Assembly: GCA_034399535.1 (NCBI GenBank)
Contig: DASCSS010000025.1
Coordinates: forward strand, 1-55,849
Source: Candidatus Thalassarchaeaceae archaeon
GTDB lineage: Archaea; Thermoplasmatota; Poseidoniia; Poseidoniales; Thalassarchaeaceae
Direction of reading: 5' to 3'
Length of the DNA: 55,849 nucleotides
The translations under genes were made by a program, and so were the position numbers. The notes below the pieces were generated by a model that had not been told where the DNA came from, did not search any database, and worked only from the letters and a program-made list of their open reading frames with translations. Below, piece by piece: positions 24,294 through 29,070 of the stretch (the stretch's first letter is position 1; the number at the start of each line of letters is the position of its first letter).

Positions 24294-25445
24294 ATGGTTA
24301 TCCTCTCTGCGACTCGCCTGAAAGATGTGAAGCACCTTATTGAAAGGGTTCTCGAATTGCAAGGTGACGAAACGCAGTCACCGACAACGGCAGAAGTCGA
24401 AGATGCCCCGGACCTAGTGAACCTACTGAAATCTCTTCAGCCGAAGATAAGAGTATTCGGTTGCGGTGGGTGTGGATCCAACACTGTTGCAAGACTCGAG
24501 CACGAAGGTTTGTTCGATGGAGAATACGTCAAGGGGATGGCAGTGAATACAGATGCTCAGCACCTGCTGAGAGTCAACGTCGCGAACAAAGTCCTGATTG
24601 GTCGCTCCGCCCGTGGCAGGGGGGCGGGAGGCGACCCTGAGAAAGGGGAACAAGCAGCATACGAGTCAGAACGTGTGTTGAAAACAGAGGTGGAGGAATG
24701 CGACTTAGCATTCATCACCGCGGGTCTCGGCGGCGGTACCGGCACTGGTAGTGCCCACGTCGTCGCCAGGCTCGCAAAGGCCTCAGAAGCGCTGACGATC
24801 GCCGTGGTGAGCTATCCCTTCGTCTCCGAGGGAGCAGTTCGCAGGCAGAATGCAGAATGGGGTTTAGAGAGGCTTAGGGAGGTTTGTGATACCGTAATCG
24901 TTCTTCCCAATGAAAGGCTGTTAGAAGTTGAGGGAGTGCGTGATCTACCACTGGATGCTGCATTCAGGGTTGCTGATGAGCTGCTGATGAGGAGTATTTC
25001 TGGGGTCTCAGAAATGATTGCCAAAGAAGGGGTTGTTAATTTGGATTTCCAGGACTTGAGGTCAGTAATGGAGAATGGTGGAGGAGTAGCAATGATTGGC
25101 CTCGGAGAAGCTTCAGCAGAGGAAGGCGCAGAAAAGGCAACTATGGAGGCGTTGCAATCCCCCCTACTAGACATAGATATCTCGGATGCAAGGGGAGCTT
25201 TGGTGAATGTCGTGGGCGGACCTGGGCTCACCCTTGGCGAAGCCGAACAATGTGCAAAGACAATCAGAGAGAGCATCAATCCCTATGCCCGGATGATTTG
25301 GGGAGTCACTACTGATGAGTCGATGGGTAATGACATAAGGGTGCTTCTGGTTCTAACTGGAGTCAAGAGCGAGCAGATTCACGGGGCAACGCTCCACACT
25401 CAAATGAGGAATCTACGGAACCGGACTGTTGAATTCGTAAGTTAG
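24294..25445 (+). CDS. ftsZ: Cell division protein FtsZ (FtsZ1 locus)
   Basis: GCGGCGSN, NTDAQHL, GAGGDP, tubulin motif GLGGGTGTG, PF..EG..R, NLDFQD; upstream of secE-spt5. Confidence 0.97.
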   Translation: MVILSATRLKDVKHLIERVLELQGDETQSPTTAEVEDAPDLVNLLKSLQPKIRVFGCGGCGSNTVARLEHEGLFDGEYVKGMAVNTDAQHLLRVNVANKVLIGRSARGRGAGGDPEKGEQAAYESERVLKTEVEECDLAFITAGLGGGTGTGSAHVVARLAKASEALTIAVVSYPFVSEGAVRRQNAEWGLERLREVCDTVIVLPNERLLEVEGVRDLPLDAAFRVADELLMRSISGVSEMIAKEGVVNLDFQDLRSVMENGGGVAMIGLGEASAEEGAEKATMEALQSPLLDIDISDARGALVNVVGGPGLTLGEAEQCAKTIRESINPYARMIWGVTTDESMGNDIRVLLVLTGVKSEQIHGATLHTQMRNLRNRTVEFVS

Positions 25446-25483
25446 ACTGTCCGGAGCCTTCCCTAATCGGACTGCCCGTTGTC

Positions 25484-25490
25484 CTTAAAT
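25484..25490 (+). promoter_or_regulatory. Putative TATA box for secE-spt5
   Basis: CTTAAAT in the ftsZ-secE intergenic region, about 40 nt upstream of the secE ATG; an AGGTGG SD lies downstream. Confidence 0.4.
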
Positions 25491-25528
25491 GGGGTCTGTA
25501 GGTCGCCGTGATGCTTCTAGGTGGTAGC

Positions 25529-25792
25529 ATGGCTGTTGAAAATTCAAAGGTAGGCCCGATCGAAGAACTTGCACAGTCATGGCAAGATGAAATAGAGGGC
25601 AGGGTCAAGGGCCTTCAGACGGGGTCCTATGCCAGGATTCTCAAGATGGCAAAGAAGCCATCTAAGCAAGAGTTCAGACAGACGATTGTGGTCTGTGGAA
25701 TTGGCATGTTCGTTCTTGGTGCGATTGGTTTCCTGATCCTAGCACTGATGGTCAACGTGTTCCCGTCATTCTTCGGATGGTTGACTGGGTGA
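25529..25792 (+). CDS. secE: Protein translocase SecE / Sec61-gamma
   Basis: YARILKMAKKPSKQEF...GMFVLGAIGFLI; synteny; ATG after AGGTGG. Confidence 0.94.
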   Translation: MAVENSKVGPIEELAQSWQDEIEGRVKGLQTGSYARILKMAKKPSKQEFRQTIVVCGIGMFVLGAIGFLILALMVNVFPSFFGWLTG

Positions 25793-25801
25793 GGTGAGAT
25801 T

Positions 25802-26668
25802 CTGTCGGAAGCTTTCACGGTGTACATCAGAAGCGGTGAGAAAGTCCTGCTGATGCAAAGGTCCGACGAAGTTGCCGATTTCCCGGGAGCATGGGATGGT
25901 ATCTACGGTATTGGAGAGACCGATGAATTGGAAACCATAGTTTCTAGAGTCACAGAATGCACCGGGATTGCATCTGACAAGCTTGACGTAGTCCGTACGG
26001 GGATGGCGAGGGGGCTCGCCTTCGGAAATAGATTGAATGATGTCACGCCAATTTTGTGCATCACTGAAGAGACCGAAGTGAGTCCCGGGACTCTGTACAA
26101 GAATTCTGAGTGGGTCGATCCGGGGGCAATTCAGACTAAGGAATATTGTACGCCTCAACTAAGAGAAATGTATGGTGACGTGGCTTCTTACCTGTACATA
26201 CTGAAGACTTCAATCGGCCAGGAGCAGAACGTAGCCAATGAGATTCGTGCTAGATTATCTGGAACTGGTTCCCTGAAAGATATTCAAGACAAGATATTCG
26301 GTGTATTGAGCCCTCATTACATGAAGGGTTTCATCTTCATCGAAGCCACGGCAATGCATCATGTACAGAAGTTGATCGGTCGGGTCGGTGTAGGAGTGAC
26401 TCCTCTAAAGAATTGCAGCAAGGTTCTCGACGGTGAGGCCCCGTTGGAAGACGTCCTCCCTTACCTTGAGCCAAAGGCGGCCACTTCAGGGATTGAAGAG
26501 GGTTGCATAGTGGAGATTTCTGGTGGAGCATTCCGTGGGCAGGCTGCAAGGGTTACTCGTGTCGCTGAATCGAAGGAAGAAGTGACGGTGGAACTATTCG
26601 AGGCCGCGGTTCCAGTCGCCCTAACCGTTAGAGCGGACCAAGTGAGGGTTACCCAGAGGGTTGAGTAG
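25802..26668 (+). CDS. spt5: Transcription elongation factor Spt5/NusG with an N-terminal Nudix-like domain
   Basis: NGN domain (YILKTSIGQEQNVA...MKGFIFIEA) and KOW domain (EGCIVEISGGAFRGQAARV...EVTVEL), plus about 128 extra N-terminal residues. Start is CTG 25802 (4 nt after GAGGTGA) or GTG 25820. Confidence 0.92.
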   Translation: MSEAFTVYIRSGEKVLLMQRSDEVADFPGAWDGIYGIGETDELETIVSRVTECTGIASDKLDVVRTGMARGLAFGNRLNDVTPILCITEETEVSPGTLYKNSEWVDPGAIQTKEYCTPQLREMYGDVASYLYILKTSIGQEQNVANEIRARLSGTGSLKDIQDKIFGVLSPHYMKGFIFIEATAMHHVQKLIGRVGVGVTPLKNCSKVLDGEAPLEDVLPYLEPKAATSGIEEGCIVEISGGAFRGQAARVTRVAESKEEVTVELFEAAVPVALTVRADQVRVTQRVE

Positions 26669-26680
26669 GCCAATTAACGG

Positions 26681-26686
26681 TTTTTT
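26681..26686 (+). terminator. Possible oligo-T archaeal terminator after spt5
   Basis: T6 run 13 nt downstream of the spt5 stop. Confidence 0.35.
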
Positions 26687-26748
26687 CAAGTTACATCATC
26701 ATCAAATAGGGAGAGCAGGTCGGCGAGTTCCGGTTAGGAGAGGTTTCC

Positions 26749-27027
26749 ATGTCAGCACGCAATGAGACGCCACACAAGATCTTGCAGACTCTAGGTCAGG
26801 AGAGGTGCAATGGTTCTTGGGAAGCTTCAACAGAGAACCTAACAATTGACCAAGTCAAGAGCGTAGCAGAATCACAGAAGGACCGTTTGACAGGAAAGTC
26901 ACTTTATGCTCGTTGCAGAGAGATTATGGGAACATGTGTAGGAATGCGCGTAAAGGTGGAAGGAATGGAGCCGAAAGAGGCTCTTAAGGCGATGAGCGAG
27001 GGGGCATTTAACGAGCATTTCAGTTAA
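26749..27027 (+). CDS. rpl11: 50S ribosomal protein uL11, C-terminal domain only (92 aa)
   Basis: NLTIDQVKSVAE...L...CREIMGTCVGMRVKVEG..PKE matches the archaeal L11 C-terminus; located between spt5 and rpl1. Confidence 0.88.
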   Translation: MSARNETPHKILQTLGQERCNGSWEASTENLTIDQVKSVAESQKDRLTGKSLYARCREIMGTCVGMRVKVEGMEPKEALKAMSEGAFNEHFS

Positions 27028-27038
27028 AGTTCACGAAT

Positions 27039-27067
27039 TGCGGGAGAGGTGATCCTCGTTGACCGCA
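27039..27067 (+). promoter_or_regulatory. Putative uL1-binding autoregulatory mRNA hairpin
   Basis: TGCGG-GA-GAGG-TGAT-CCTC-GTTGA-CCGCA forms two stems with an asymmetric 2x5 internal loop, immediately before the rpl1 SD (GAGGTGA). Confidence 0.7.
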
Positions 27068-27078
27068 GAGGTGATAAA

Positions 27079-27723
27079 ATGAGAGAAAATCTTCAATCAG
27101 CGATACAAGAGGCAATCGATGGGGCTCCCGAGAGGGGCTTCGTGGAGTCAATCGAGCTATCTTTCACAATCAAGGATGTTGACCTAAAGATTCCCACAAA
27201 CAGGATTCAGGAGGAGGTCAGACTACCCTCAGGAAGGGGGAAACCAGTCCGCATAGCAATGTTCGCAGGTGGAGAGATGGCTTCTAAGGCGAAGGCAGGT
27301 GGAATTGACGTAATCGACCCTGCAACAATTGAAGACCTGGGCGGAAACAGGCAGAGAGCTCGCAAGGTAGCTAAACAATACGATTTCTTCCTCTCTGAAA
27401 TACCCCATATGGGCACTGTTGGGAGGTTCTTAGGAGGAGTACTAGGCCCAAGAGGGAAGATGCCTCGCCCCGTTCCTCCCACTCTTGATCCATCGACACT
27501 GGCAAGTGGGCTGAAGGACACCGCAGTAGTTCGCTCCCGTGACAGAGTCACCTTCCACACAGCGGTAGGTTCGAGGGAACAAGGCATAGATGACTTGACT
27601 TCGAACGCAATTGCAGTCTGGGACAGAGTAACCGGGAAGCTGGAGAGAGGTGCAGGAAACATTCGTTCCTGCTACGTCAAGACTTCGATGGGCCCCTCTG
27701 TGAAGGTTGAGGTGATCATATGA
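27079..27723 (+). CDS. rpl1: 50S ribosomal protein uL1
   Basis: RGFVESIEL, GRFLGGVLGPRGKMP, YVKTSMGPSV. ATG 27079 follows GAGGTGA. Confidence 0.97.
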   Translation: MRENLQSAIQEAIDGAPERGFVESIELSFTIKDVDLKIPTNRIQEEVRLPSGRGKPVRIAMFAGGEMASKAKAGGIDVIDPATIEDLGGNRQRARKVAKQYDFFLSEIPHMGTVGRFLGGVLGPRGKMPRPVPPTLDPSTLASGLKDTAVVRSRDRVTFHTAVGSREQGIDDLTSNAIAVWDRVTGKLERGAGNIRSCYVKTSMGPSVKVEVII

Positions 27724-28739
27724 TTCCCAAGGTAGCTGGCTGGAAGAAGGACAAGGTCACTGAACTCACGGAGATTTTCAGCGGCGATGGCGTAGTAGCT
27801 GTCGTGGATGTTTCAGGAGTTCCTGCAAGCAATATGATCGACATGAGGAACACGCTCCGTGATAGGATGTCCATCACGATGGCAAAGAAGTCACTCATGA
27901 GGATTGCATGGACCGCGGCAGGGAGATCCTTGGATGAGCTGGAAAATATCCTGGAAGGAGCATCGCAGCCCTGTGTGGTTCACAGCGAATCAATGAATGC
28001 TTTCGAAATATTCGGCGAGTTGGAGAAGACCCGCCAAGGGCGACCAGCAAAGGCCGGGGAAAGATTCCCCGAGAAGATCACCATTCCAGCTGGTCCTACT
28101 GAGTTCGGACCTGGCCCGATTGTTGGTGAGTTCAACGCCGTTGGAATTCCTGCGAAAATAGACAAGGGAAAGGTAGCAATCCAAAGAGATACAACATTCG
28201 AACAGGGTGATGAGATTTCAGCCGATTTGGGAATTATGCTAGCAAAGCTTGGAATCAATCCAATTGAAATTGGGCTAATTCTATCTGGCGCGATAGAAGA
28301 AGGACACATCTTCTCATCTTCTGAACTAGATTTGGATACGGAGGGACTTCGAAATGATCTCATATTGGCAACATCTGGTTCATTCAATCTAGCTTGCAAT
28401 GTAGGGTGGTTCTCTGTTGTTACTACGCCGACTTTGATTTCAAAGGCGTCTGGAGAGGCGCTTTCTGTGGCACTAGAAGCGGGAATTGTGAATGATGTCA
28501 CGGCTTCATTCATACTTTCTAACGCACGTTCTCGTGCTCTGTCCTTAGCAGGACAATTGGATTCCTCTGCTCTAGACGAAGAGCTGCTTACCGTTTTGGG
28601 GGCCGCATCGTCTACACAGAGCAATGAAACCGCTTCCTCCGAGGCGGCTCAGGAAGAGGTCGTAGAGACCGCTTCCGAGGAAGAATCGGAGGAAGAGGAG
28701 GATGCTGGGTTCGAAGGACTCGGTGATCTCTTCGGTTGA
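27720..28739 (+). CDS. rpl10: 50S ribosomal protein uL10 (P0)
   Basis: [30 protein letters not shown], acidic tail ending GLGDLFG; overlaps rpl1 by 4 nt. Confidence 0.96.
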
Positions 28740-28755
28740 GAAAAAGGTGAAAAAA

Positions 28756-29070
28756 ATGGAATATGTATATGCTGCAATGTTGTTGCATTCTGCAGGAAAG
28801 GGCATCGATGACAAGGCGGTCAGCTCAGTGTTGACAGCCGCTGGAGTCGAGGCTGACGGGGGCCGAGTTAAGGCTCTCGTCGCCTCGTTGGGCTCCGTGG
28901 ATATCGATGAGGCCATGGCGACCGCGGTTGCCGCCCCAGTGGCCTCGGCTGCTCCTTCTGCGGCTTCCGGCGGAGCGCCCACAGAGGCTGCTGCTGCTGA
29001 GGAAGAAGCTGCTGAAGAGCCCGAGGAAGAAGCGGGTGGCTTCGAGGGTCTTGGCTCTCTGTTCGGCTGA
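28756..29070 (+). CDS. rpl12: 50S ribosomal stalk protein P1/L12
   Basis: [14 protein letters not shown]...Ala-rich hinge...EGLGSLFG; AGGTGA SD. Confidence 0.97.

Follow-up and report, generated by a model that had tools for sequence, protein, structure and literature searches.

An N-terminal predicted Nudix-fold domain, degenerate at its catalytic box, on the elongation factor Spt5 of Marine Group II archaea

To our knowledge, Spt5/NusG is the only transcription factor common to all domains of life, and the archaeal protein is usually viewed as a minimal one that consists of an NGN and a KOW domain. Additions to this core are familiar from other lineages: eukaryotic Spt5 has an acidic N-terminal region and extra KOW domains, Mycobacterium NusG has an N-terminal extension, and Thermotoga NusG has an inserted domain. 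These known additions are disordered regions or other folds, and our literature searches, which covered the sources in part, found no Nudix domain among them. The Nudix box follows the consensus GX5EX7REUXEEXGU and holds three metal-binding glutamates. In the bacterial regulator NrtR, a Nudix domain is joined to a C-terminal helix-turn-helix (HTH) domain, and the protein represses initiation at specific operators. The abstract of the NrtR study describes its N-terminal Nudix-like domain as the effector domain, with ADP-ribose freeing NrtR from DNA (PMC2330246).

Here, we describe an spt5 gene from a window of 55,849 nucleotides, by which we mean the whole stretch of DNA that was analyzed. The open reading frame 25802..26668 on the plus strand encodes a 288-aa Spt5. 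This frame had been given in the initial annotation together with a peptide, and translation of 25772-26668 reproduced that peptide exactly (…AFTVYIRSGEKVLLMQRSDEVADFPGAWDGIYGIGETDELETIVSRVTECTGI…), with a single frame running through spt5 to the stop at 26666-26668; the detail that differs is the start, since position 25802 is a CTG and the mechanical ORF listing begins at GTG 25820. ATT 25799 is a further alternative start in the window. In all 25 relatives examined, an ATG occupies the codon that corresponds to CTG 25802 and is preceded, 5 to 9 nt upstream, by a Shine-Dalgarno-like purine-rich stretch (GAGG/GGTG-type, mostly GAGGTG), and we therefore take 25802 as the homologous start. The GAGGTG-type Shine-Dalgarno of the relatives overlaps the secE stop, and in the window the TGA stop of secE (25790-25792) likewise overlaps the spt5 ribosome-binding site. 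The CTG was found without variants in contigs of four runs (two DNA and two RNA libraries), and the window itself may stem from the two DNA runs. The gene order around the locus is ftsZ-secE-spt5-rpl11-rpl1-rpl10-rpl12, and the features discussed below are collected in Table 1.

Table 1. Coordinates of the spt5 features and of the context genes in the window
Feature	Coordinates	Strand	Evidence
secE (context gene)	25508..25792	+	PF00584 SecE, E 1.6e-5
Shine-Dalgarno-like GAGGTGA before the spt5 start	25791..25797	+	window sequence
Homologous spt5 start codon, CTG	25802..25804	+	ATG at this codon in 25/25 relatives examined
Predicted Nudix-fold domain without catalytic residues, aa 1-127	25802..26182	+	phmmer, hhalign, AF2, Foldseek, VIA, dN/dS
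Degenerate Nudix box, aa 36-56: G-IGETDELETIV-SRVTEC-TGI	25907..25969	+	alignments, column counts
NGN domain, aa 131-193 by Pfam	26192..26380	+	PF03439 E 3.8e-10, 40 bits vs cut-off 22.4
KOW motif, aa 236-264	26507..26593	+	within TIGR00405 match; alignments to solved Spt5 KOW domains
Stop codon TAG of spt5	26666..26668	+	sequence and translation
uL11 gene (context, downstream), 92 aa, C-terminal domain only	26749..27027	+	PF00298 at aa 11-70

The C-terminal part of the protein, aa 132 to 286, is a normal NGN-KOW core. It matches model positions 1 to 142 of the 145 in TIGR00405 (E 1.9e-31; 109 bits against a cut-off of 69.95), and the Pfam KOW model PF00467 taken alone reaches 13.9 bits, below its cut-off of 22.3. 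Solved Spt5 chains match the window protein with E values from 7e-24 (9bct_G) and 3e-22 (3p8b_B) to 1.5e-19, and the residue-level alignment extends through the KOW domain of both named chains. Spt4 is encoded on another contig of the same genome (PF06093, E 7e-12). Together with synteny, these matches uphold the assignment to Spt5 made in the initial annotation, and sequence comparison identifies the gene product as the Spt5 of a Marine Group II (Poseidoniales-type) archaeon. Ahead of the NGN domain, which starts at about residue 131, lie about 127 to 130 residues counted from 25802, in agreement with the earlier estimate of about 128.

A phmmer search of the N-terminal part against 1.84 billion representative sequences returned 83 matches at E<=1e-3. 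When 42 of these 83 were scanned with Pfam, 35 contained the NUDIX family PF00293 and 4 were other Spt5 fusions; in 13 of the 42, the Nudix match was fused to IF-2B rather than to Spt5. The best matches to an intact archaeal Nudix subfamily reached E values down to 4e-10, and the Nudix similarity of the N-terminal part is thus far beyond chance at the sequence level. A profile of the fused domain aligned to the profile of this subfamily by hhalign with 99.5% probability (E 2.2e-22, 121 columns). Furthermore, an HMM of the intact subfamily scored the Spt5 N-terminal domain at 69 bits in its own genome, against 30.9 and 29.8 bits for the real Nudix genes there. The window's own domain gave no Pfam NUDIX match at E<=1, Pfam and NCBIfam scans of the window protein returned nothing over aa 1 to 125 at the same threshold, and a whole-genome scan with PF00293 did not match the spt5 locus. 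Among 21 genus representatives of the fused domain, by comparison, 13 matched PF00293 at E<=1 (best, 2.1e-6). The Nudix homology of the window's domain is therefore visible only via relatives, profiles and structure. Against PDB sequences, the fused-domain profile found Nudix proteins only, weakly and with a best match to NudC (E 0.049) that is not significant alone; a feature search of the ESM Atlas, which we treat as a lead only, placed 27 of 30 matches in NUDIX clusters at about 0.92.

In line with this, an AF2 model of the domain, predicted from fused rows only, had a pLDDT of 91.6 and a pTM of 0.85. Foldseek returned at least 403 PDB matches to the model at E<=1e-3, and all of those listed were Nudix-fold proteins or domains (top E values, 8e-8 to 3e-7; TMq up to 0.83). 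The VIA alignment to the solved MutT protein 3grn gave a Z score of 15.7 and an rmsd of 2.0 over 123 of 127 residues. Length, strand order and the C-terminal helix are common to the Spt5 domain and the intact subfamily, and about 4 residues separate the last Nudix helix from strand 1 of the NGN domain. Collectively, the searches and the model indicate that the N-terminal 127 residues are a true Nudix homologue with a predicted Nudix fold, as had been proposed from the letters of the sequence. Structural scores against the NrtR Nudix domain, RppH and Ap4A hydrolases were tied with those against dozens of other Nudix proteins, and the structural matches single out no ligand for this reason. A complex prediction of the N-terminal domain (aa 1 to 127) against NGN (aa 128 to 222) with 21-row alignments gave a score of 0.01, with the mark at 0.32, a result that counts neither way.

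The catalytic signature has not been retained along with the fold. In the window, the loop of the Nudix box is short by 2 aa relative to the aligned intact proteins, and where intact relatives read [RK]E-x2-EE-x-G, the window reads S-R-V-T-E-C-T-G-I, so that RE has become SR and EE has become EC. Column counts over the 21 genus representatives showed that this is an order-wide state: arginine occupies position 49, the glutamate of RE, in 20 of 21; position 48 is arginine in none; position 52 is E in 17, D in 3 and Q in the one remaining genus; and position 53, the second glutamate of EE, is acidic in none and is replaced by a small residue. The WE[HN] motif found downstream in intact relatives is also gone, and the Spt5 domain does not conform to the three-glutamate consensus of the box. 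The loss of RE and of the second E that the initial annotation read from the window alone thus extends across the order, and the gene it set against this one at 2074 carries PF00293 at 2125-2511 (E 2.3e-22), with a box that reads as intact. In all, 17 positions of the domain are invariant across the 21 genera, and the residues newly invariant in the fused clade are R10, D32, R49, R70, Y99 and D106. By the hhalign alignment and the column counts, R49 occupies the exact position of the former metal-binding glutamate. The stretch closest to intact relatives is the b2-b3 loop (…V-a-D-f-P-g-a-W-D-G-v-y-G), with a mean identity to them of 0.31 versus 0.19 to 0.20 in the C-terminal half, a small contrast. 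The domain carries a net charge of -11 (order median, -12; pI 4.3); acidity was considered as a functional clue and rejected, as 29% of the 127-aa windows of the proteome are at least as acidic.

The fused domain is a property of the whole order, which is Marine Group II by its database names. It was matched in all 121 order genomes sampled, from three families and with single-contig genomes included, and lay in one open frame in 118 of them (117 with an uninterrupted full-length match and 1 more); a separate ORF, which had been raised as a sign of an artefact, was not the arrangement encountered. A search of metagenome proteins gave 661 matches, with the fused architecture present in hundreds of independent ones. 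When 75 order genomes were scanned with the domain profile, nothing but the fused copy matched the Nudix subfamily. Outside the order, the same subfamily is represented by separate, intact genes at other loci; these uncharacterized archaeal proteins of about 135 aa bear a D-W-E-[HN] motif, and no curated NCBIfam model reached its cut-off on them. Of the standalone relatives in other families of the phylum, 17 of 18 kept the E..EE triad ([RK]E-x2-EE) and all 18 kept WE[HN]. The fused clade had an SH-aLRT support of 100 and a long stem in a quick tree. These comparisons show, at the level of sequence, that the domain descends from this widespread, catalytically intact subfamily, and they point to a single origin of the fusion at the base of the order. 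In the 3 of 15 same-genus pairs with unsaturated dS, the N-terminal domain had a dN/dS of 0.05 to 0.11 and NGN-KOW one of 0.009 to 0.034; the other 12 pairs were saturated for the domain and yielded no dN/dS. The domain evolves about 3 to 6 times faster than NGN-KOW, and the alignments and substitution rates show that its metal-binding residues were lost after the fusion while the fold was retained under purifying selection. A 275-aa protein with the same architecture, P0176, found its best matches among 401 phylum genomes in the order's own Spt5 (26 to 30% identity, co-linear over residues 6 to 272), and a search of genome contigs with it found no related locus. Public annotation overlooks the domain: all 120 relatives listed carry only PF03439 by precomputed Pfam and are named plain Spt5 or NusG. 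No description of an Spt5/NusG-Nudix fusion was found in the open-access literature searched, supplements aside; the word "Nudix" occurs 0 times in PMC13289920 and once, for an unrelated gene, in PMC6741140.

In other Thermoplasmatota, the place ahead of NGN in Spt5 is taken by an N-terminal domain unrelated to this one. Of 16 loci read there, 11 encode a beta-rich domain of about 120 to 140 aa and 1 an acidic repeat, counts that are not a frequency because the loci were picked for long open frames. The beta-rich domain matched no Pfam family and gave only weak Ig-like leads. An N-terminal add-on as such is therefore not unique to the order, and the premise that archaeal Spt5 is normally NGN and KOW only holds for the solved proteins (147 to 163 aa) and fails for these other Thermoplasmatota. 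Immediately downstream of spt5, a second component is altered: the uL11 N-terminal domain PF03946 was not found in the window's own genome, and none of 41 order genomes had a match above its cut-off, so that on these scans the order appears to lack it. With an add-on on Spt5 and a shortened uL11, the core expression machinery of the order seems unusually remodelled.

On sequence grounds, the domain probably binds something rather than cutting it, and we tentatively favor a non-hydrolyzing binding module for a phosphate-bearing, nucleotide-type ligand, carried on RNA polymerase. The Spt5 domain would no longer hydrolyze, and its old substrate cleft would be reused for holding a ligand; lined by arginine in place of the Mg-binding glutamates, the cleft could hold a phosphate-bearing, nucleotide-type molecule, for which a free NDP-X-type metabolite and the 5' end of the growing transcript are candidates. 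With NGN bound to the clamp of RNA polymerase, the module would ride on every elongating polymerase; occupancy by the ligand may then alter the engagement of Spt5 with the polymerase or with its partners, and processivity, pausing or termination may be tuned in this way. This reading draws on the six newly invariant residues, on R49 at exactly the former metal position, on the b2-b3 loop as the region most similar to intact relatives, and on the precedent of the NrtR Nudix-like effector domain, as set out in the abstract of PMC2330246. A bolder version, which we consider unlikely, makes Spt5 a ligand-gated general elongation factor that would sense either the chemical state at the 5' end of the nascent RNA or a metabolite derived from a nucleotide (of the ADP-ribose, NAD, Np4N or PRPP type); the signal would pass through the rigid junction to NGN and switch the engagement of Spt5 with the clamp. 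Several observations weigh against a binding role. R49 and D32 may just form structural salt bridges that replace the metal site, the regional contrast in identity is slight, the domain evolves faster than the core, and the window's own copy has no Pfam NUDIX match at E<=1. Its acidity, although ordinary for the proteome, gives no hint of general nucleic-acid binding. The unrelated beta-rich domain at the same place in other Thermoplasmatota further suggests that what counts may be where such a domain sits on the polymerase and not its Nudix chemistry. This last point also speaks for a dead Nudix fold exapted purely as a protein-protein surface, with no small ligand and with RNA polymerase, Spt4, a chromatin protein, or a termination or translation factor as the proposed partner. 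We hold such a plain docking or scaffold role to be doubtful in itself yet almost as likely as the binding module: many pseudoenzymes are scaffolds, the domain is acidic, and the very short junction to NGN fits a fixed architectural role, but a mere scaffold would not need the near-invariant arginine at the former metal position or the retained substrate-side loop, and it has no known partner.

That the domain is still an enzyme, working co-transcriptionally through non-canonical residues (e.g., E52 with D32/D106) on a target such as the nascent RNA 5' end or cap, seems improbable. In its favor, 20 of 21 genera retain an acidic residue, E or D, at one position of the box, D32 and D106 are newly invariant, and the structural matches include RppH and Ap4A hydrolases; however, the domain has lost two of its three box glutamates as well as that of WE[HN] while 17 of 18 standalone relatives keep the triad, position 52 is glutamine in one genus, and these structural matches score no differently from all other Nudix proteins. 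It is very improbable that the domain lies outside the working protein, with translation starting near NGN (at Met123, or at GTG 25820 to give a truncated fold) and the upstream frame a relic or annotation artefact. The homologous start in this genome is CTG rather than ATG, and Met123 stands 7 residues before NGN strand 1, but the dN/dS of the domain implies a frame that is translated and constrained, 17 residues are invariant over 21 genera, and 25 of 25 relatives have ATG with a Shine-Dalgarno-like stretch at the upstream position. A conserved internal start giving a canonical short Spt5 was rejected, as in 26 sequences codon 123 is a non-start (TTA or CTC) in 6 and an upstream Shine-Dalgarno-like 4-mer is found in only 5. 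The chance that an assembly or binning artefact joined a Nudix gene to spt5 is negligible; no support for it was found, and it is refuted by the same architecture in 121 of 121 genomes of three families, single-contig ones included, by hundreds of independent metagenome proteins (661 matches) and by contigs of 4 separate runs.

According to the title and abstract of PMC6741140, Marine Group II archaea rank with the most abundant planktonic archaea in the surface waters of the ocean. The entire order bears on its Spt5 a conserved, enzyme-derived extra domain stripped of catalytic residues. Should the domain bind a metabolite or an RNA end, it would represent the first effector control built into a general elongation factor itself; a docking surface would imply that the archaeal elongation complex has a partner yet to be recognized. 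The ligand-gated version, if true, would link metabolism to transcription genome-wide at the level of elongation in Marine Group II archaea, and we know of no Spt5 or NusG with a link of that kind. Its closest analogies would be RfaH-type autoinhibition and NrtR-type sensing.

Compared with known systems, the intact D-W-E-[HN] subfamily is the direct sequence relative of the Spt5 domain, as seen in the hhalign comparison, and differs in retaining the box and WE[HN] in genes separate from spt5. RppH, NudC and Ap4A hydrolases, which act on RNA 5' ends, NAD caps and Np4N, share the fold of the model (among the top Foldseek rows: 5cfi, E 8e-8; BdRppH 3ees, TMq 0.76; Escherichia coli RppH with RNA 4s2y, TMq 0.74); in contrast to the Spt5 domain with its degenerate box, they are active enzymes with an intact box, and the structural ranking does not separate them from MutT, NudI, the MutY C-terminal domain or IDI. 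Superposition of the model on the NrtR Nudix domain with ADP-ribose (3gz8) gave a Z score of 15.1, tied with those of hydrolases, and an rmsd of 2.2 over 121 residues. NrtR would offer a functional analogy, a Nudix-like domain that is the effector part of a transcription protein and not an enzyme, according to the abstract of PMC2330246. The Spt5 domain shows no specific sequence kinship to it, its nearest relatives being the D-W-E-H subfamily. Its architecture differs as well: where NrtR has an HTH, Spt5 has the NGN-KOW of a general elongation factor, and Pfam and NCBIfam found no HTH family in the window protein. With the archaeal Spt5 proteins solved from Pyrococcus, Thermococcus and Methanocaldococcus, the window protein shares the NGN-KOW core, aligned over its full length, the operon place after secE and before rpl11, and an Spt4 in the genome; the solved proteins begin at NGN, whereas the window Spt5 has 127 additional N-terminal residues. 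The arrangement resembles the lineage additions of other NusG/Spt5 proteins, in which the universal NGN-KOW core bears a clade-specific module; like the N-terminal region of eukaryotic Spt5, the domain described here precedes NGN and is acidic.

Translation of 25772-26668 yields a single open frame that opens directly past the secE stop codon (TGA, 25790-25792) and contains the peptide that the initial annotation had quoted ahead of the NGN domain. The C-terminal part of the spt5 product matched TIGR00405 (E value, 1.9e-31; 109 bits against a cut-off of 69.95) and the NGN family PF03439 (E value, 3.8e-10), and it was matched by solved Spt5 chains from Thermococcus, Pyrococcus, and Methanocaldococcus, each of 147 to 163 amino acids (E values, 7e-24 to 1.5e-19); by these matches, it is a standard archaeal Spt5. 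Since the solved chains align from their own residue 2 to 6, and given the NGN match, about 127 residues precede the NGN domain, in agreement with the roughly 128 first estimated. A mechanical ORF call begins at GTG 25820, and the start annotated initially, 25802, is a CTG. The codon homologous to 25802 is ATG in 25/25 relatives (5 congeners and 20 others, each representing a genus of the order), where it lies 5 to 9 nt past a GAGGTG-like Shine-Dalgarno sequence overlapping the secE stop, which identifies 25802, by comparison, as the homologous start codon. No other letter was found at the CTG (25802-25804) in contigs of four runs, two of them DNA runs that may be the window's own source and two of them RNA libraries from other studies, so an assembly error does not explain the CTG. 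Contigs from the RNA libraries span the secE-spt5 junction (25540-25920 and 25715-25978), which fits co-transcription without proving it. The protein database holds a 282-aa form, P0001, called from GTG 25820. A conserved internal start for an extra, short canonical Spt5 was considered and rejected: codon 123 is ATG in 20/26 sequences and TTA or CTC in 6/26, and only 5/26 have a Shine-Dalgarno-like 4-mer ahead of it.

Features of the spt5 region and the loci of an alternative N-terminal domain
Feature	Position or loci	Strand	Remark
ftsZ, secE, spt5, rpl11, rpl1, rpl10, rpl12	24294-29070	+	gene order in the window
Shine-Dalgarno sequence GAGGTGA	25791-25797	+	window sequence; as in relatives
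uL11 gene, 92 aa, C-terminal RNA-binding domain only (PF00298 at aa 11-70)	26749-27027	+	directly after spt5
Beta-rich Spt5 N-terminal domain	L013-L021, L026, L028		several other Thermoplasmatota families

Pfam gave no match at an E value of ≤1 over the window's own N-terminal sequence, and a PF00293 scan of the whole own genome (67.6% complete) found six other places, with the spt5 locus not among them. When residues 1-131 were searched by phmmer in a set of 1.84 billion representative proteins, 83 hits had an E value of ≤1e-3. The 42 longer hits were scanned with Pfam: 35 carried PF00293 (NUDIX), four were further Spt5 proteins extended in the same way, and three were other proteins or matched nothing. 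In 13 of the 35, members of the nearest intact Nudix subfamily, an eIF-2B-like (ribose-1,5-bisphosphate isomerase-type) IF-2B domain was fused as well (P0147, P0154, P0164, P0170-P0172, P0175, P0184, P0189, P0191, P0192, P0196, and P0202); NCBIfam hits on intact-subfamily proteins were all under the cut-off, and at loci of two phylum families (L069 and L070) the intact domain sits behind another region of ~110 aa. When a profile of the fused N-terminal domains of 21 genus representatives was aligned with a profile of eight standalone Nudix proteins by hhalign, the probability was 99.5% (E value, 2.2e-22; 121 columns), and 13/21 representatives matched PF00293 individually at an E value of ≤1 (best, 2.1e-6). 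An AlphaFold2 model of the domain, for which the 21 fused sequences were the sole input and catalytic Nudix rows were excluded, reached a mean pLDDT of 91.6 and a pTM of 0.85. Foldseek matched it to at least 403 PDB chains at an E value of ≤1e-3, which were Nudix-fold throughout among the matches listed; examples were 3grn (TMq, 0.83; rmsd, 2.4) and BdRppH (TMq, 0.76), and Ap4A hydrolases, NudI, and E. coli RppH were also present. VIA-align superposed the model on 3grn with a Z score of 15.7 (rmsd, 2.0 Å; 123 residues aligned), and a full-length spt5 model gave the same Nudix-fold result. Within the own genome, the HMM built from standalone subfamily members gave the Spt5 N-terminal domain 69 bits and bona fide Nudix genes 30.9 and 29.8 bits. 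Four independent lines (sequence, profile, structure, and own genome) thus establish, as first read, that the 127 residues at the N terminus form a genuine Nudix domain.

The Nudix box was compared with that of 18 standalone or otherwise-fused homologues from 11 other phylum families, including the sister class-level lineage f4. These read [RKTI]-E-x-x-E-E-x-G, with three glutamates kept in 17/18 and Q-E in one, followed downstream by W-E-[HN] in 18/18. The window box reads S48-R49-V-T-E52-C53-T-G-I, and the loop ahead of its helix lacks two residues that the aligned intact proteins have. Across the 21 genera, no genus has Arg at position 48, where Arg or Lys is canonical; at position 49, which holds the Glu of "RE" in the intact box, 20 genera have Arg and 1 has Cys; position 52 is Glu in 17, Asp in 3, and Gln in 1; no acidic residue occurs at position 53, the site of the second Glu in "EE"; and the W-E-[HN] site reads x-[LI]-Y. 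The window letters and these counts bear out the degeneracy noted initially, and, judged by its residues, the catalytic apparatus of the Spt5 Nudix domain is gone as a clade-wide property. The Nudix gene reported near 2074 as intact does carry a textbook box, G-x5-E-x7-RELEEETGV (2062-2523, + strand; PF00293 E value, 2.3e-22). By the subfamily HMM, which scores it at 29.8 bits and the Spt5 domain at 69, this gene is not that domain's nearest paralogue.

The organisms are not known to have been cultured. The order was sampled through 121 genomes of three families and 21 genera, the own genome included. The fused Spt5 was matched in 121/121: in 117 without interruption or stop from query residue ≤5 to ≥286, in G079 in two pieces inside a single 317-aa open frame, in G084 and G098 up to contig ends, and in G097 in two pieces in different frames. 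An N-terminal-domain profile found exactly one locus per genome, the fused one, in 75/75 order genomes searched; the fusion is real, as had been proposed. Close relatives, publicly named "Marine Group II euryarchaeote," "Candidatus Thalassarchaeum betae," or "Candidatus Thermoplasmatota archaeon," are all annotated as plain Spt5 or NusG, with PF03439 the sole precomputed Pfam family among the 120 matches listed. In a phylum-wide sample of 301 genomes, Spt5 matches outside the order, among those listed, start at query residue ≥79, mostly at 120 to 131. Homologues of the N-terminal domain occur at an E value of ≤1e-4 in 95/226 genomes outside the order, typically as open frames of 133 to 180 aa, and in the 14 genomes compared they lie on a different contig from spt5 or >380 kb away. 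In a quick maximum-likelihood analysis covering 51 domains, rooted at the midpoint only, the 21 fused domains were set apart by a branch (SH-aLRT, 100) whose stem was long (0.98 + 0.51 changes per site). In the simplest history, the order's ancestor gained the fusion when an intact standalone Nudix gene of the archaeal subfamily joined spt5 at its 5' end, and rapid divergence of the domain with loss of catalysis followed. The co-linear architecture is shared by P0176 (275 aa), at only 26 to 30% identity and with a box still more degenerate; its lineage was absent from 401 sampled phylum genomes and from the scanned species collection. In G119, a second, canonical-length Spt5-like ORF (G119:C58:177-608; 161-aa open frame; 29% identity to residues 131-274) lies beside the fused one and may be a paralogue or contamination.

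Other lineages carry additions of their own. Long open frames guided the choice of 16 other Thermoplasmatota spt5 loci, and their counts therefore give no frequency: 11 have a different, beta-rich N-terminal domain of ~120 to 140 aa, one (L022) a long acidic PEEK-repeat region, and four no extension. The beta-rich domain, with motifs like SW-F…AKL-FS…APEW-V-L-D…CP-GARYGD, matched no Pfam family; weak leads are Ig-like (PF10633/PF11614 at E values of 0.04 to 0.14; atlas score, 0.85). The NGN N terminus thus seems to be a place where the phylum hangs lineage-specific parts. Certain order members may have a further extension before the Nudix domain, with long open frames of 355 to 389 aa from putative starts (G005, G089, G046, G036, G066, and G037; also P0134, 385 aa); in P0134, an acidic stretch is accompanied by a zinc-finger-like motif, C-x2-C…H-x4-H, and P0121 has a long acidic stretch. 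In family f3 (L044-L049), the loop that connects NGN to KOW carries a basic insert of 9 aa (…GRDPKARRG…), and several genera (L034, L035, L042, and L043) have inserts of 8 to 17 aa past the W-V-D-P-G motif of the Nudix domain. The same 92-aa uL11 gene was found at 6/6 same-genus loci. PF03946, the L11 N-terminal domain, was not found in the own genome and was over the cut-off in 0/41 order genomes (37 of them ≥90% complete), with three chance-level hits (E values, 0.03 to 0.05) and 14/14 control genomes positive. The sister class-level genome at L023 has what we take to be a normal L11 N terminus after spt5. A literature search on uL11 domain loss found nothing; the whole order may be without the factor-binding domain of uL11.

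That the fusion is an artefact is hardly conceivable given its recurrence across the order. It is highly improbable that the N-terminal domain, with CTG at the homologous start codon in the window, is not translated. In the three of 15 same-genus pairs with unsaturated dS, dN/dS over codons 2-127 was 0.109, 0.082, and 0.050, with 0.034, 0.013, and 0.009 for NGN-KOW in the respective pairs, and 17 N-terminal positions are invariant in 21 genera (F5, R10, L16, R20, W31, D32, G33, G36, T54, G55, G71, P83, Y99, W104, D106, Y124, and G125); judging by this pattern, the domain is translated and constrained. Residual catalysis is improbable for a box that keeps Glu at position 52 in most genera and has lost it at positions 49 and 53.

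In the model, the last Nudix helix ends near residue 125 and NGN strand 1 starts at 130, predicting a joint of about four residues. The results show a folded, constrained Nudix domain without metal ligands, tethered to NGN strand 1. NGN binds the polymerase clamp, as established for archaeal Spt4/5, and because of this the Nudix domain would travel with the elongating polymerase; Spt4 is encoded in the own genome, so the domain is no replacement for it. We tentatively favor a binding role for the old Nudix cleft, because a near-invariant Arg occupies the former Mg-binding Glu position, further Arg and Asp residues are newly invariant, and the substrate-side b2-b3 loop is kept; regional identity to intact relatives (0.31 versus 0.19 to 0.20) is a small contrast. 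The ligand, which would not be hydrolyzed, may be a nucleotide-type metabolite in free form or the 5' end of an RNA. Structural neighbors do not discriminate a ligand, since their VIA-align Z scores (NrtR, 15.1; MutY C-terminal domain, 13.9; RppH, 13.9; IDI, 13.7) lie within two units. The main rival, a pure docking module, draws on the unrelated N-terminal modules on Spt5 in other Thermoplasmatota (beta-rich or acidic at the picked loci) and is only slightly less probable than the binding role. Taken as a whole, the initial annotation holds in part, for its Nudix fold, degeneracy, and real fusion, with sensing as a putative function.

A Spt5/NusG-Nudix fusion is not described in the open-access main texts searched, and the word Nudix is absent from a 2026 domain survey of elongation factors (PMC13289920). 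What is new here is the order-wide domain architecture of a universal factor; the Nudix fold and the pseudoenzyme mode were already known. Specialists who study archaeal transcription would not expect a dead-Nudix Spt5. The protein belongs to the Spt5 family, and its fold and homology also place it in the Nudix superfamily; its N-terminal domain lacks the box that defines active Nudix hydrolases. The precedent for such a binding role is NrtR, in which the N-terminal Nudix-like domain is reported to act as the effector domain, and ADP-ribose releases NrtR from DNA (PMC2330246). Unlike NrtR, the Spt5-Nudix protein has no HTH and no specific kinship to NrtR, and it is therefore not an NrtR; by analogy, it may nevertheless work like one, with a Nudix-derived effector domain acting at elongation rather than initiation.
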